From contig DATGZA010000060.1 of assembly GCA_035297365.1 (NCBI GenBank), positions 1-54,102 on the forward strand: a DNA stretch of 54,102 nt. The letters run 5' to 3'. Of the stretch, positions 1 to 5,755 are shown piece by piece. This DNA is from Nitrososphaeraceae archaeon (GTDB taxonomy: Archaea > Thermoproteota > Nitrososphaeria > Nitrososphaerales > Nitrososphaeraceae). A program made the translations under genes and the position numbers. Each line of letters starts with the position of its first letter. Position 1 is the stretch's first letter. The notes under the pieces are model-generated. The model saw only the letters and a list, made by a program, of their open reading frames with translations. It ran no database searches and was not told the DNA's origin.

Positions 1-976
1 GGTTACCTGCCGCAAGGTTAGAGTAGGACTTGGTGGCACCAGCAGTACAGTCTGTAAAATTAGCAAAATCTAGAGAACACACAAAACCATCGGCAGTGGC
101 ATTTACAGGTGTATCTGGATTATCATCATTAAGGACCGTTGGATGGTAGGTAAAGGTGATATCATCATAATTGGTCATACCATCCTGAGTTACATTAACA
201 TCACTGCTATCTATGGCAGTATCTATGACCGTATCGGTGGTGATTGTCCATCTCCATTCTGCAGGCGTTGAGTCATTTATCTGAACATTATTCGATACTA
301 TGAATGCTCTCACTTGGAAGGTATGGTTACCTGCTGGAAGATCAAAGTAGGACTTGGTGGCACCAGCAGTACAGTCTGTAAAATTACCACCATCAAGAGA
401 ACACTCAAAACCATCGACTGTAACTACTACATTTTGGCTATTTTTAGCCGTGAAATTAAATGTTATATCATCATAATTGGTAGTACCGTTCTGAGTTACA
501 TTAACATCACTGCTATCTATGGCAGAGGTAATAAAAGTATCAAAATCAACTACAAACCATACCCAAGTAGCAGGTGTTTCGTCGCACTTATTATTTGATT
601 TCATACAGGCTTGCACCTCAAATGTATGCATTCCCAATGACAATCCAGTGTAGTTTTTGTTACTGGTAAAATTGGTTGGAGAATCTATAAAGTTCGTACA
701 GTCGACAAATCCTAGGCTATCATTATCTAATCGACATTTGAACTTATCAACTTGAGGTTGGTTGTTTATAACTTCACTATAATAGAAGGCTATAAAATTA
801 GAAGTTGTAGAACTTACGTTAAGTACAGGATTGTTAAAACCATCTATGGCAGAGGTAATATTAGTATCTCGAGAGGTTTGTCCATACACTGAAGCAATAT
901 CAGTTGAAGATAAAACTATTATAACAGCAATTGAAAGTAAAAAAGTTATAAAAATTAAGAATAATGCATTTATCAT
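1..976 (-). CDS. Secreted/surface protein with tandem Ig-like repeats (partial, runs off the left edge; absent from the ORF track)
   Basis: Manual translation from ATG at 976: MINALFLIFITFLLSIAVIIVLSS (signal/TM), then ~100-108 aa repeats DT.I..AID...FxCxLD..F.DC...Y.L..G.HTF.V.A...D.TPA.W.W. Open to position 1. Confidence 0.85.
   Translation of the reverse strand, partial: MINALFLIFITFLLSIAVIIVLSSTDIASVYGQTSRDTNITSAIDGFNNPVLNVSSTTSNFIAFYYSEVINNQPQVDKFKCRLDNDSLGFVDCTNFIDSPTNFTSNKNYTGLSLGMHTFEVQACMKSNNKCDETPATWVWFVVDFDTFITSAIDSSDVNVTQNGTTNYDDITFNFTAKNSQNVVVTVDGFECSLDGGNFTDCTAGATKSYFDLPAGNHTFQVRAFIVSNNVQINDSTPAEWRWTITTDTVIDTAIDSSDVNVTQDGMTNYDDITFTYHPTVLNDDNPDTPVNATADGFVCSLDFANFTDCTAGATKSYSNLAAGN
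22..525. repeat. Intragenic direct repeats of the Ig-like domain gene
   Basis: Identical 41-bp block at 22-62 and 346-386; identical 35-bp block at 185-219 and 491-525. Confidence 0.9.
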
Positions 977-1287
977 TCAGAAATTGTACATTTTGTATAT
1001 TTATCGATTACATATGTTTGAGGTAGAAAAATCAAATGTAAACAATCAATGTATAATAGTAACAATTATTTTTTCAAAAAATTTTAAATTATACTCTTAC
1101 TATTATATCTATAATATAATTTCGTAAGTACCACTCGGAATCTTATATTCATGTGAATTAGTCTGTATCAGTTGAATACATTATTTTATAATGATTCAAG
1201 TTCAATTTGATATAATTTACACAGGAAATATATTGTGTTTCGTGGATATTAGACGAATATCTTATTCATTACTAAATTATTATACTA

Positions 1288-3276
1288 TTATAAATAATCC
1301 AACAGTGTCCTTTGGGAGTTACTTTTTATTTTATTTGAGATTCTTATTAAATTGGACGCTCTCAATCCAACTTTTCTAATTGGTAGTATGTTTGTAGTTA
1401 CTAATTCACTTTCGTTGTTATCTTGATTTTTCGTTAAATTGAATCTATCCAATAATTTATCTATTGTTAATTCAATACTTTCTCTATCATTTTTGTAGCT
1501 ATTATAAGATGTTTCTCTTGTTTCAATGCTAAAATCGGTCCTAACGAGTTTTATTCCGACTGTTCTATACTGATAACCATAACTAGAAATTCTATCATAC
1601 AGTTCATCAGTTAGACCATATAAGACCTTATGTATTTCTTGTCTGTCTTGAGTAAAATTCTCCAATGTAGATTCATTACTCAAGGAAACATGATCTTCTC
1701 TTGGAACGACCTTATCGTCATCTTCTCCATTAGCCACTTTCCACATCCACGTTCCAGTTTTCTTTCCAAATCTTTCTATCAAGACCTGAACATTGGCTCT
1801 TGCCAATTCGCCTATGGTTTTAATTTTCAACTCTTCTTTTAAGATTTTTTGTGTCTTACTTCCGATCCCTGAAATTCTTTCAACCTCCAATGGATATAGA
1901 AATTTTTTCAATTCTTCAAAATGGACAATGGTTAGACCATCAGGTTTTTGATAATCCGATGCTATTTTTGCAGCTGATTTTGTTGTTGCTACACCTACGG
2001 AGGTTAACAACCCATGACATTCGTCTTGAATTTTCTTTTTAATCTCTTTAGAATACCAGTCTACAGTCACATTCATTGAAGAAATCTTTCTTGTACAGTC
2101 CAAATATGCCTCATCTATGCTAGCCTGTTCCAAAGTATCTGCGTATCTTTGCAGTATTTCCATTACTTTTTCTGAGATCATATTATAGTATTTTTTGTCT
2201 ACAGCACGTAATATCAAATTGGGACATAGGTTTAACGCTTTGTATAAGGGCATCGCAGACTGTACTCCCAATCTCTTAGCCTCATATGAACAGGTTGCCA
2301 CCACACCTTTTGTAATGTTATTATTTTCTTCATCGGTCATTATGACGGCATGAGGTTTTCCTTTTAAAGATGGATCTCTTATCTCTTCACACGATGAATA
2401 AAAAGAGTTAATGTCAACATGGAAAATCGCTTTACCTTTCCATGCTTTGACCTCGTTTTTCGGATTATTGTAATTATTGACGCTTTGAACCTGCCCTGAA
2501 TTTAACAATTTCCGGATAAAATTTATTTTCGAGATATTATTATTTTCCAGTACTATACCTACAAAATAAACTGCATCGGTATGAGAATAAGAGTTTGTAC
2601 TTATATTATTTGATTTTTCAATGTCTTTCTCTTTTTCTTTTAACTTTTGTATCCACTTTTCCAGATTTTCGCTTATCTGTAAATACAAAAAATTGGATGT
2701 AATTACATTATATTTATGTCGATCAGACCATATCAGCGAAGTATTGTACTTTTTTAAAATGTTGTAGGTTAGGTCTTGATACCAAGATTGATGTTCAAAC
2801 TCTATTGCAATTAAATATTTAAACTGTTTACAAAATTTTAAAAGGGTATTCAACCATTCTCTATCTTTTGCTAAAGTAAAAGTCGATGGCACTTTTAACA
2901 CTATTGCAAGAATCTTTTTTTGAATTGGTTGAAGTTCTTGAAGAAATCTTTCTAATTTGTCATGGCTATCCTTATTAATATCTATATACTGTTTTGGGAC
3001 CATTATAGTGATTTTAAAATCAATAGAATCAAATTCTGCCCATTCTCTAAGTGTTTGTCTAAATCTAGGTAAATCCGACAATATCTTCTTATCCTTGAAA
3101 ATATCGAGAAAATCAATTTGTACAAAGTTAAAAAGGTGAGAATAATCCCATAAATAATCTTTTGATTTAAAAGTTGTCTGGCAAAGATTTTCAATTATAT
3201 CTTTTCCTTCTTTTTCTTTTTTATTAGATGGAACCGTTATCTTTTGCCATCCCACGAAACCTACGCTGTATTTCAA
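1288..3276 (-). CDS. dinB: Y-family DNA polymerase IV (DinB/Dpo4) with N-terminal degenerate DUF72-like domain
   Basis: C-terminal part: IFHVDINSFYSSCE, ATCSYEAKRLGVQSAM, ASIDEAYLD, AKIASDYQKPDG, ISGIGSKT, terminal PIP-box-like QRTLLDYL. N-terminal ~220 aa follows the DUF72 pattern (VGFVGW, YSHLFNFVQID, LKVPSTF, AIEFEHQSW). Confidence 0.9.
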   Translation of the reverse strand: MKYSVGFVGWQKITVPSNKKEKEGKDIIENLCQTTFKSKDYLWDYSHLFNFVQIDFLDIFKDKKILSDLPRFRQTLREWAEFDSIDFKITIMVPKQYIDINKDSHDKLERFLQELQPIQKKILAIVLKVPSTFTLAKDREWLNTLLKFCKQFKYLIAIEFEHQSWYQDLTYNILKKYNTSLIWSDRHKYNVITSNFLYLQISENLEKWIQKLKEKEKDIEKSNNISTNSYSHTDAVYFVGIVLENNNISKINFIRKLLNSGQVQSVNNYNNPKNEVKAWKGKAIFHVDINSFYSSCEEIRDPSLKGKPHAVIMTDEENNNITKGVVATCSYEAKRLGVQSAMPLYKALNLCPNLILRAVDKKYYNMISEKVMEILQRYADTLEQASIDEAYLDCTRKISSMNVTVDWYSKEIKKKIQDECHGLLTSVGVATTKSAAKIASDYQKPDGLTIVHFEELKKFLYPLEVERISGIGSKTQKILKEELKIKTIGELARANVQVLIERFGKKTGTWMWKVANGEDDDKVVPREDHVSLSNESTLENFTQDRQEIHKVLYGLTDELYDRISSYGYQYRTVGIKLVRTDFSIETRETSYNSYKNDRESIELTIDKLLDRFNLTKNQDNNESELVTTNILPIRKVGLRASNLIRISNKIKSNSQRTLLDYL

Positions 3277-3404
3277 GATTATATTACCCCTGCTCTAATT
3301 ATTTATGGAATATTCAATTTTTAATCGTTTATTCATAATTGTATCTTTTCTATACATGCTTATGTCTGGGTCCTTCCGTAGTAATCTGTCATATTAGTTA
3401 TTTC

Positions 3405-4414
3405 TGCTCTGTTGCATGATTCATAAATTTATTGATAATAATTCTGTGGTTGTAGTCTTTTATGTTGTGGATATAAACAAATTGTATAATGATGCTTTCA
3501 ACATTATCTCTTTTACCATGTTCTCAAATTTAACAGCAGATACATATTCACCAAACATTCTCTTCATAGAGGAAAAGACAGATTCTACAACCCATCTCTT
3601 GCCATAGCTAACGCTATCCTTCCATTTATTAAAATCAGTTTTCTATTCTACTACTGCAAGATTTCTTTTATAGTGATTGTCATTTCTGATTCTAGCATTC
3701 TTTCTTACCTTTATTGCTGGTTTGATATCGTTGAATGAAAGAAATTGGAATATTTTGTTGTTATCATATGAACCATCTGATATCACAGTATTTACATCGA
3801 TATTCTGTTGTCTGATAATATCATGCATTAGCATGGGTAATACTTTTGAATCAGGTACTTTGTCTGTAGTAACATTTAGAGATAGAATTTTTATCTTATT
3901 ATTATTATTTATATCTACAGCTACATGAATCTTAAGATATCCTTTTCTACTTTTACAGTGCCACTTATGACGCATCCACTCTCCTCTATTTGTTATCTTT
4001 ATTCCTGTAGAATCAATTGCTATAATAACATCATTACCTCCTAATTTGTTGTTGTTAACATGAATATCCAGTTTGTTTATTCTCCTATCTATAGTACTAT
4101 AGTCAGGAATTGATGGGATTTTATTTTCAGCATGAGCTCTTACTATACCTTCAGTCTGCCTGAATGGAAGATGAAAATACACTCTTGCATATCCAAGTAA
4201 TAAGAGAAATGAGTTGGGATAGTGATATGGTTCTCCAACTTTACCTTTGTTCATTTCTTTCAATTCATTATCCCAATTATCTATAATATCAAATCCAAGC
4301 ATAATTTCTCCACGCTTAACAAGAGATTGATTATATTTTCTCCAGTTTATCACATAATATGACTATAACAGGTTAGCTAAATAGATTAGCAGTAGTAAAT
4401 CATGCAACAAACCA
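3405..4414 (-). mobile_element. IS5-family (IS903-like) insertion sequence
   Basis: 17-bp terminal inverted repeats: TGCTCTGTTGCATGATT (3405-3421) vs TGGTTTGTTGCATGATT (reverse complement of 4398-4414). Direct repeat GTTATTTC at 3397-3404 and 4415-4422. Transposase inside. Confidence 0.92.
3460..4353 (-). pseudogene. IS5-family transposase interrupted by one in-frame TAG at 3643-3645
   Basis: NWRKYNQSLVKRG, IAIDSTG, KIHVAVD, DGSYD. After the TAG the same frame continues KTDFNKWKDSVSYGKRWVVESVFSSMKRMFG to TAA at 3460-3462. Confidence 0.9.
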
Positions 4415-4747
4415 GTTATTTCCACCATGGTAATTCTCGGTGCAGAAAATCACATTAAAATAAAAGATTTCTTAACCCGCTTTGAGAAATAAACGATGTC
4501 AATATAATATCAAAAGACTTGTTAATTTTAAAAGTGCTGAAACTATTTAAAAAGTTGCTCATAAATTTATTTGAATGTTATTGTTTACATCGTTTAAAAA
4601 TACAGACATTTATGTATTCAGTTTTAGTTACTTATCACTGAGGTTTAACATATTTCTTTTTTTGTTCGGGGTTATTGTCAATCTTTTTAATATTTAAAAA
4701 GTATTGCAAATTATTTATATCTAGATAAATTATCATTAAAATACAGA

Positions 4748-5755
4748 TTGCAAATAAAAGATAAAAAAGATATAGAATTTGGACTAACTATTCCACAAGG
4801 TTGGAGAGGTGGAGATCTACCATTAGAAGAAGAAAATGATCCGATTAAACAATACGAGTTTTCAAAAAAGATAGCCCTTGCTGCAGAGCAGGCTAGATTC
4901 AATTCCATTTATGCTTACGATCATTTTATCCCGCATTTTAGAGATGATGTTGAAAAAAATATTTTTGAATGTTTTACACTGATTTCATCAATTGCATCAA
5001 TAACACAGAAAATTAAGATAGGGCAGGTCGTCACTTGTAATTCTTATCGCAATCCGTGTCTTCTATCAAAAATGATTGCTACCTTGGACATAATCAGTAA
5101 TGGTCGGGCTGAGGTCGGATTGGGTGCTGGATGGTATCAAGAAGAATATATGTCATATGGATATGAATTTCCATCTCACGTTACACGAATCTCTCAATTG
5201 GATGAATCTTTACAGATAATGAAAAAAATGTGGGAGGAAAATACGATTTCTTTTATAGGCAATTACTATAAAATATCAAACGCAATATGTAACCCTAAAC
5301 CGATTCAGAATCCGCATCCTATAATAATGATAGGAGGCTCTGGAGAAAAATATCTTCTTAAAGTTGCGGCAAAACATGCTGATAGATATAATCTTTTTTT
5401 TGGCTCTCCAGAGAAGATGAAAAGAAAAATTTCCATTTTGAAAAGCTATTGTAAGGACATAGGAAGAGATCCAGAAGAGATAGAATATTCTATCGTACTT
5501 CCTTGTCTTATCAGAGAATCTGAAGATGAGATCGATAGTATCTTGATTAAACATAAAAGGAAAGATAAAAGCATGAAAGAATATCTGCAGTATCTCGTAG
5601 ATGGCGTTACAATAGGAACTCCTGAAAAAATAATTAAAGGATTGAACGAATATGTGAATGATGGAGTAAGTCACTTCATAATGCATTTTTTAAATTTGAA
5701 TGTCAAAAGTTTAGAATTATTTCAATCACAGGTGATAAAGAATTATAAACTATAA
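4748..5755 (+). CDS. LLM-class (probably F420-dependent) oxidoreductase
   Basis: YDHF, SYRNPCLLSKMIATLDIISNGR, GLGAGW, CNPKPIQNPHPIIMIGGSGEK motifs. Confidence 0.9.
   Translation: MQIKDKKDIEFGLTIPQGWRGGDLPLEEENDPIKQYEFSKKIALAAEQARFNSIYAYDHFIPHFRDDVEKNIFECFTLISSIASITQKIKIGQVVTCNSYRNPCLLSKMIATLDIISNGRAEVGLGAGWYQEEYMSYGYEFPSHVTRISQLDESLQIMKKMWEENTISFIGNYYKISNAICNPKPIQNPHPIIMIGGSGEKYLLKVAAKHADRYNLFFGSPEKMKRKISILKSYCKDIGRDPEEIEYSIVLPCLIRESEDEIDSILIKHKRKDKSMKEYLQYLVDGVTIGTPEKIIKGLNEYVNDGVSHFIMHFLNLNVKSLELFQSQVIKNYKL

Follow-up and report, generated by a model that had tools for sequence, protein, structure and literature searches.

What is a TIM barrel of the DUF72 family doing at the front of a translesion-type DNA polymerase? 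The question is raised by a gene in contig DATGZA010000060.1 of a Nitrososphaeraceae archaeon (assembly GCA_035297365.1), which we take to be a soil ammonia-oxidising archaeon. The stretch analysed, positions 1 to 54,102 of the contig, is called the window here, and the gene occupies positions 1288–3276 on its minus strand. It encodes a protein of 662 amino acids in which a DUF72-type barrel precedes a Y-family polymerase of the DinB/Dpo4 type. DUF72 (YecE/TM1631) proteins are widespread in bacteria and archaea, with structures since 2004; to our knowledge, no activity has been assigned to them. Modelling is reported to predict that TM1631 binds DNA and acts as an endonuclease (PMC3828134), and DUF72 is reported to be enriched next to polB2, its fold being likened to that of UVDE (PMC11791011). 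We propose, with a probability of about 0.6, that the fusion protein is a translesion polymerase tethered to PCNA, to which a flexible linker attaches an accessory barrel of DUF72 descent that is probably not catalytic.

The DUF72-polymerase fusion is a single gene

The ORF list of the window contains a single open reading frame (ORF) at 1288–3276, with 662 codons, a TTG start at 3274–3276 and a stop codon at 1288–1290; upstream of this start the frame stays open for just 6 more codons (668 amino acids). The initial annotation, made from the sequence alone, had read it as one 662-residue ORF with a DUF72-pattern N-terminus, an Asn-rich linker and an intact DinB ending in a tail like a PCNA-interacting peptide (PIP), and apart from the extent of the linker this layout was borne out by the translation and by profile searches. 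In a hidden Markov model search, the DUF72 profile PF01904 matched residues 37–216 with 62 bits (cut-off 25.3, E 1.1e-16, profile positions 6–189 of 217; 63.7 bits in a scan of the whole genome), and an AlphaFold2 (AF2) domain model together with VIA-align placed the TIM barrel at residues 1–258 (2503–3276, minus strand, as are all features of the gene). The polymerase begins with the palm and fingers (IMS; residues 282–441, 1954–2433), which carry D288, D388, E389 and the aromatic pair F292-Y293 and were matched by PF00817 at 287–441 (143.8 bits, cut-off 23.2, E 4.7e-42). These are followed by a thumb with a helix-hairpin-helix (residues 454–519, 1720–1917), which was matched by PF21704, PF21999 and PF11798 (at 465–519; PF21704 38.1 bits, cut-off 27), by the little finger (IMS_C; residues 531–646, 1339–1686; PF11799, 51.1 bits, cut-off 20.7, E 2e-13) and by the PIP-box-like C-terminal tail QRTLLDYL (residues 655–662, 1291–1314). 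Taken together, the C-terminal 380 residues scored narrowly above the cut-off of PRK02406, the NCBIfam equivalog for DNA polymerase IV (261.2 versus 256 bits).

An Asn-rich linker is present as first described, with one correction: not 217–281 but only about 259–281 (LNSGQVQSVNNYNNPKNEVKAWKG; 2434–2502) is unstructured, since the barrel reaches to about residue 258, with its eighth beta strand at 238–243 and a helix at 248–257 in the AF2 models. The predicted local distance difference test score (pLDDT) of this tether fell below 50 at residues 266–281 in the domain model and at 262–277 in the full-length model, and among the other fused proteins 99% share its W279 and 97% its G281. The full-length model shows two confident domains, with a predicted template modelling score (pTM) of only 0.46 and no fixed mutual arrangement predicted.

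The fusion is a genuine single gene and not an assembly artefact. Both PF01904 and PF00817 were present in 114 of the 120 best database relatives listed, and these 114 share the architecture of a true DUF72-Y-family polymerase fusion. A survey of the family found a match in 145 of 151 sampled genomes, and an uninterrupted frame of 597–770 amino acids was counted by hand, among the matches listed (411 more are unlisted), in at least 67 of the 151 genomes and in 14 of 18 genera, the unpublished genome G077 being among the 67. The N-terminal barrel was confirmed by its own profile in 32 fetched loci. Moreover, the related loci L024 (89% identity) and L026 (94%) hold a gene of the same length and frame, and the junction is crossed without a gap by one contig from each of two other studies (X8 at 1399–3400 and X5 at 2222–2841); no stop occurs among the contig differences listed, which are all but 15. 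A merger of adjacent DUF72 and dinB genes by assembly or sequencing error might be read from a few relatives with two ORFs (L027) or a frameshifted barrel (L015, L063) and from a break in the X3 contigs at 2581–2602, but the continuous frame recurs in relatives from several sources, the gene length is identical in L024 and L026, and two contigs bridge the junction. The split in L027 requires four substitutions giving a stop and a start, which makes it derived rather than ancestral. Two separate genes in relatives, which the initial annotation would have counted against a fusion, were seen only in a minority of derived relatives, and we consider a merging artefact barely credible.

Some apparent interruptions were set aside. 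A stop at codon 461 in X5 resulted from scoring singly two changes that fall in one codon, where relatives read N or E. The X3 contigs end at 2580 and restart at 2603, which we took as a contig break in low-complexity sequence and not as a split of the gene. We also rejected translation of a barrel-less product from a start inside the gene, as codon 266 is GTC in the window and reads ATG only in L027.

Judged from these comparisons, the fusion is of old date, occurs widely across the family and is not peculiar to the window genome. Outside the family it was not found, in that no frame exceeded 482 amino acids among the 150 DUF72 matches listed (262 more are unlisted) from 251 genomes of the phylum, a result that does not establish absence. 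Many of the top DUF72 matches in other families of the phylum lie in frames of about 385–482 amino acids that cover the profile from position 5–11, suggesting an extra part of some 150–200 residues.

The barrel keeps its fold and one of seven near-invariant polar residues

The AF2 model of residues 1–281 reached pLDDT 82.7 and pTM 0.82. Its top four Foldseek matches fell on the solved DUF72 entries 1ztv, 1vpq and 1vpy (E 3e-9 to 4e-8), and VIA-align superimposed it on 1vpy, 1ztv and 1vpq with Z 20.2–20.7 and a root-mean-square deviation of 2.4–2.8 over 204–216 residues, other chains scoring at most 13.3. Structure prediction, which the initial annotation had suggested as a check, therefore agrees with the DUF72 assignment.

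We defined a set of near-invariant polar residues, in window numbering E53, K92, H99, Q128, E159, R161 and R200, each of which is conserved at 93–96% in 82 stand-alone DUF72 proteins. All six sequences of the window clade read Q53, M92 (I in one), D99, K128, E159, E161 and Q200, so that E159 is the sole survivor and E53Q, K92M, H99D, Q128K, R161E and R200Q are the losses. T98I and G203E are changed as well, and the residue table against relatives thus marks Q53, M92, I98, D99, K128, E161, Q200 and E203 as eroded. At the level of motifs, GCSGWS has become GFVGWQ, FVEIDSTFY has become FVQIDFL.., K..ITH has become M..YID, QLPP has become KVPS, E.RH.SW has become EFEHQSW, R..G has become QISE (in a region reading YLQISE) and NNHY has become LEN; E159, H162, S164 and W165 are retained. 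The erosion that the initial annotation had noticed is therefore real, since VQID stands for VE(I)D, K...TH is lost through the changes at 92, 98 and 99, and R..G is lost through those at 200 and 203. Since only E159 of the polar set is kept, we regard the domain as a member of DUF72 by fold and sequence and not as its functional equivalent.

Much of this remodelling is shared, with the window clade having gone one step further than most fused barrels. The 107 other fused proteins mostly lack H99 (kept in 19%), Q128 (35%) and R161 (18%), and they retain E53 in 98%, K92 in 89%, E159 in 100% and R200 in 99%. Where other genera have changed E53 they carry S or H, and where they have changed R200 they carry H or D, against Q and Q in the window. 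Several columns are invariant or nearly so in fused proteins and rare in stand-alone DUF72, namely L169, W183, S184, W279 and G281. The window retains 26 of the 32 columns that are conserved at 90% or more in other fused barrels, and the retained ones are mostly aromatic or aliphatic, which fits a kept fold with a lost polar site. The DUF72 Pfam scores are 62 bits for the window, 77 for two fused copies of the same genus and 164–182 for canonical-type fused copies.

The polymerase part and its C-terminal tail

An alignment of 48 fused proteins shows D288, D388 and E389 without exception, and all 57 rows of a second alignment have them too. We take D288 to be the Asp of motif I and D388-E389 to be the Asp-Glu of motif III, assigning their catalytic roles from Dpo4/DinB. 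In Dpo4/DinB, motif I is D-x-D. Here it (residues 288–290, 2407–2415) reads D-[IL]-N in 52 of the 57 relatives, and D-x-D is found only in L016, L017, L044, L063 and the distant paralogue L006. The polymerase is most likely active.

PIP boxes follow a pattern of the type Q-x-x-[LIM]-x-x-[FY]-[FYLI] at an accessible terminus. All 57 aligned relatives end in the pattern Q-x-x-[LIM]-x-x-[FY]-x, and Q655 is invariant in the 48 fused proteins. Residues 648–656 have pLDDT below 50 in the full-length model, which makes the tail likely to be flexible. We consider the tail PIP-box-like and PCNA binding probable.

The genome holds a second, stand-alone DinB of 378 amino acids (L006 1441–2577, contig C91) with DFDYFF and the tail QSTLLNFI, which is only 27% identical to the fused polymerase part. 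A 271-amino-acid ORF on the opposite strand adjoins it.

The barrel evolves under relaxed constraint and is repeatedly lost

Scans for close relatives yielded only 2 loci in genome contigs and 4 in metagenome contigs. The ratio of nonsynonymous to synonymous change (pN/pS) within the window clade was taken from the window, L024 and L026 only, whose three pairs share branches and are not independent; it amounted to 0.37–0.70 in the barrel and 0.20–0.37 in the polymerase. The excess of synonymous change in the barrel gave p = 0.0095, 0.3 and 0.00075 in the three pairs, the closest pair showing a barrel pN/pS of 0.70 with p = 0.3, and relaxation of the barrel relative to the polymerase gave Fisher p = 0.015, 0.18 and 0.043. 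Across the family, 14 close pairs had a ratio of nonsynonymous to synonymous substitution rates (dN/dS) of 0.10–0.55 in the N-terminal domain, and 13 of them had 0.09–0.36 in the polymerase, one pair being saturated; remodelled barrels elsewhere in the family evolved at 0.10–0.48. The family-wide values show that the remodelled barrel is in general a constrained domain, and in the window clade it is a weakly constrained one, evolving in a relaxed and non-neutral manner. Between the window and L024 the synonymous rate (dS) was 0.10–0.14 in the barrel (2503–3276) versus 0.30 in the polymerase (1291–2433), that is, two to three times lower, which recombination or composition could explain.

The barrel is dispensable: fission, frameshift or deletion has removed or broken it many times, and the polymerase remained intact. 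In a quick IQ-TREE phylogeny of the polymerase with 57 rows, fused, unfused and remnant forms interleave; parsimony counted 13 changes, at least 6 of them forced by starred branches. Upstream of the polymerase, no DUF72 trace (E <= 1) was detected in 19 of 21 unfused loci in the 876–3061 nucleotides of upstream DNA examined, the other two being too short to tell. One frameshift breaks the barrel of L015, the barrel of L063 lies in three pieces, and only its tail is left in L055. In L027 (87% identity; 480–575), codon 262 is TAA where the window has CAG and codon 266 is ATG where it has GTC, so that the four substitutions place a stop and a start nine bases apart and yield a separate polymerase of 396 amino acids; the database proteins P0008, P0011 and P0014 (396–397 amino acids) are split-off polymerases of the same type. 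Furthermore, several species of the genus of the window have orthologues of 396–425 amino acids, 63–67% identical, that lack the barrel. Genomes of this genus also contain stop-interrupted DUF72 fragments beside 2–4 intact copies (G069:C10:1447548-1448235, G059:C258, G026:C3 and G048:C65; L081, L084, L089, L091-L093, L095 and L096), which suggests that the DUF72 family is in flux in this genus.

Origin of the barrel and a second fusion to the same polymerase

The window genome encodes three further DUF72 proteins, all canonical and stand-alone (167–198 bits). In a tree of the barrels, a long stem (support 100*, length 1.01) leads to a single clade that unites 30 of the 32 fused barrels, and this clade lies near the stand-alone subfamily that includes the C26 and C31 copies of the genome. 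The fused barrel thus appears to descend from the Nitrososphaeraceae stand-alone DUF72 subfamily that C26 and C31 represent.

The two remaining fused barrels, L039 (G130:C263) and L040 (G059:C14) of the same genus, nest inside the stand-alone clade, and forcing all 32 fused barrels together was rejected by an approximately unbiased test (p = 3e-12), for a group named after seeing the tree. The first approximately 290 residues of L039 are 79–90% identical to a stand-alone DUF72 protein of another species in the genus and hold all canonical motifs (179.6 bits), and from the W-x-G-K junction on L039 is 76–94% identical to the polymerase of L009, which itself carries the old remodelled barrel. This mosaic indicates a second joining event, in which a canonical DUF72 domain took the place of the old barrel on the same polymerase. 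The L039/L040 class includes about 20 database proteins of 681–685 amino acids. A search for fusions with a canonical paralogue as the query returned no more than 26 proteins, and DinB of this type was the partner in each, which is weak evidence.

The C26-type stand-alone protein (L002 1444–2331) itself ends in KQSSISDFFK, which resembles a PIP box. Among its 120 closest database relatives, 114 are full length (285–320 amino acids), and in 111 of these 114 the pattern Q-x-x-[LIMV]-x-x-[FYW]-[FYWLIM] lies within the last three residues of the end; elsewhere in these relatives, 32,877 positions contain it 8 times. As the relatives are close kin (58–93% identity), the PIP-like end counts as one conserved trait and not as 111 independent observations. 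No such end is present on C31 and C84, the paralogues in the window genome.

A possible role for the remodelled barrel

We propose the following mechanism. The DinB/Dpo4-type polymerase, most likely active, would be recruited to PCNA through its C-terminal PIP box, and a flexible tether of about 20 residues would connect its N-terminus to the TIM barrel. The barrel probably came from the PIP-bearing stand-alone DUF72 subfamily in an old fusion and was remodelled soon after, before the window clade went on to lose six of the seven near-invariant polar residues. With these residues gone, it very probably no longer performs the canonical DUF72 reaction. It may persist as a folded, weakly constrained module, either as an appendage that binds DNA or a partner or as one drifting towards loss, the polymerase being the part under strong selection. 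The initial annotation had pictured a fusion linking DUF72 to lesion processing, perhaps as an inactive lesion-binding module; its fusion and its eroded positions both stood, and given the erosion an inactive module is the most likely state, whereas lesion binding found no support in the analysis. Several points weigh against our proposal. The closest pair gives no significant sign of purifying selection on the barrel (p = 0.3), and branches are shared among the three pairs. The persistence of E159, H162, S164 and W165 has to be accommodated, and a near-invariant residue is a conserved one, not one proven to be catalytic, so that a remodelled site could still be active. AF2 does not confidently dock the barrel onto the polymerase (pTM 0.46), and so a structural role is not indicated by the model. 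Motif I is D-x-N and deviates from the D-x-D of Dpo4/DinB. The only signal from an RNA library, in run X18, consists of two small contigs, one of 246 nucleotides at 2483–2728 and one of 112 nucleotides at about 3157–3238 with an odd back-joint; these may be DNA carry-over and are not evidence of transcription. Finally, the recurrent loss of the barrel in relatives would fit a functionless relic equally well.

Such a relic would be a decaying barrel, still in frame merely for lack of time, on a protein that works like a stand-alone DinB. The loss of six polar residues, including E53 and R200, which 98–99% of other fused barrels keep, points that way, as do the Fisher values for relaxation, the pN/pS of 0.70 in the closest pair, the L027 type of split with its polymerases P0008, P0011 and P0014, and the barrel-less orthologues of other species in the genus. 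However, no stop interrupts the barrel frame in any of the six full-length sequences of the clade or in L024 and L026, despite a stop-prone G+C content of 21–37% in the gene region; two of the three pairs show a significant excess of synonymous change; 26 of the 32 family-conserved, mostly structural columns persist in a confidently predicted fold; and remodelled barrels elsewhere in the family are held at dN/dS 0.10–0.48. We therefore regard a relic as unlikely, though it deserves to be kept in mind. The opposite alternative is a neofunctionalised enzyme, in which a remodelled active site would couple a lesion-processing step (incision, lyase or similar) to bypass synthesis. The long-stemmed clade of 30 fused barrels under purifying selection, its own (near-)invariant columns, the retained E159, H162, S164 and W165 and a fold related to UVDE (Z 12.2–12.6) are compatible with this, and so are the published prediction of a DNA-binding endonuclease for TM1631 (PMC3828134) and the reported enrichment of DUF72 beside polB2 (PMC11791011). 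Nevertheless, different genera replace the same positions differently (E53 by Q, S or H; R200 by Q, H or D), which would not be expected of one new active site, and the window clade lacks residues that nearly all other fused barrels keep. The match to UVDE is tied with that to sugar epimerases and so shows a shared superfold only. An enzyme with new chemistry seems quite improbable to us. Between these alternatives, the accessory, probably non-catalytic barrel on a PCNA-tethered polymerase remains our preferred reading of the window protein. We also put forward, tentatively, a wider proposal in which the DUF72 proteins of these archaea would be PCNA-docked enzymes for damaged DNA that act beside DinB and were fused to it twice under strong selection; the older fused copy might then be a catalytically dead 'reader' that keeps the polymerase at a lesion or passes the lesion on, with the PIP-bearing stand-alone paralogues keeping the chemistry.

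Relation to known systems

Compared with Dpo4, Dbh and DinB, the window protein has the same IMS palm and fingers, helix-hairpin-helix thumb, little finger, D288/D388/E389 triad, aromatic pair following motif I and PIP-type tail; it differs in the additional 258-residue N-terminal TIM barrel with its tether and in the D-x-N form of motif I. Its barrel matches DUF72/UPF0759 proteins (PF01904; TM1631 in 1VPQ, EF0366 in 1VPY/1ZTV; YecE as the JGI name) above threshold and has the same fold, whereas it keeps one of the seven polar residues, has no STFY, TH, QLPP or NNHY motif, and is fused, so that a polymerase stands in place of a PIP tail of its own. With the other DUF72-DinB fusions of the family (580–745 amino acids, entered as 'DNA polymerase IV' or 'DUF72 domain-containing protein') it shares the architecture, the W-x-G-K junction and the PIP tail; unlike these, the window clade is further without E53, K92 and R200, and the L039/L040 sub-lineage has a canonical barrel. 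Within the UVDE/xylose-isomerase-like superfold, the Z scores of 12.2–12.6 refer to 3tc3, 4gle, 2j6v, 3bzj and 3c0s, and sugar epimerases and MbnB lie level with them at Z 12–13. The PolB2 operons with DUF72 resemble the fusion in associating DUF72 with a translesion-type polymerase; there, however, the reported association is one of gene neighbourhood with a B-family polymerase (PMC11791011), while here it is a covalent fusion to a Y-family one. That report was the only DUF72 paper found that also mentions DinB, Y-family, translesion or PCNA. In the literature searched, which did not cover subscription journals, we found no description of a DUF72-DinB fusion and no work combining Nitrososphaera and DinB.

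Being an eroded copy, the window barrel by itself gives no evidence of what DUF72 enzymes do. A link between DUF72 and lesion processing would rest less on this copy than on the canonical second fusion and on the PIP box of the donor subfamily, and the wider interest of the locus lies in these two features, the double fusion and the PIP box on a stand-alone DUF72 protein. Beside the modelling of TM1631 (PMC3828134) and the polB2 neighbourhood (PMC11791011), there are now three further, independent computational clues that may point to a role of DUF72 in DNA repair: much of the family has DUF72 covalently joined to a translesion polymerase, a recent second fusion or domain swap put a canonical DUF72 on the same polymerase, and 111 of 114 stand-alone relatives from the donor subfamily end in a PIP box. 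Together they make it a directly testable hypothesis that DUF72 acts on DNA at the sliding clamp with DinB.

Genomic neighbourhood

About 130 nucleotides upstream of the gene start lies an insertion of approximately 1 kb (3404–4415), bounded by 18-nucleotide inverted repeats (3404–3421 and 4398–4415) and carrying a DDE transposase ORF (PF13737 and PF01609) at 3646–4353 on the minus strand. Neither L026, whose flanks are 97% identical, nor L024 has this insertion; in both, a luciferase-like gene (4748–5755 in the window) is the direct divergent neighbour of the fusion gene. Ten bases of L026 align to both sides of the insertion, as a target-site duplication would. Between the insertion and the gene, an A/T-rich ATAAATAA box at 3299–3306, 23–30 nucleotides upstream of the TTG codon, could be the TATA box of a leaderless transcript. 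Downstream, the neighbour at 2–976 (minus strand) encodes a repeat-built protein with no Pfam match, and the matching region of L024 (6276–9987) repeats every 330 nucleotides or so, at least six times.

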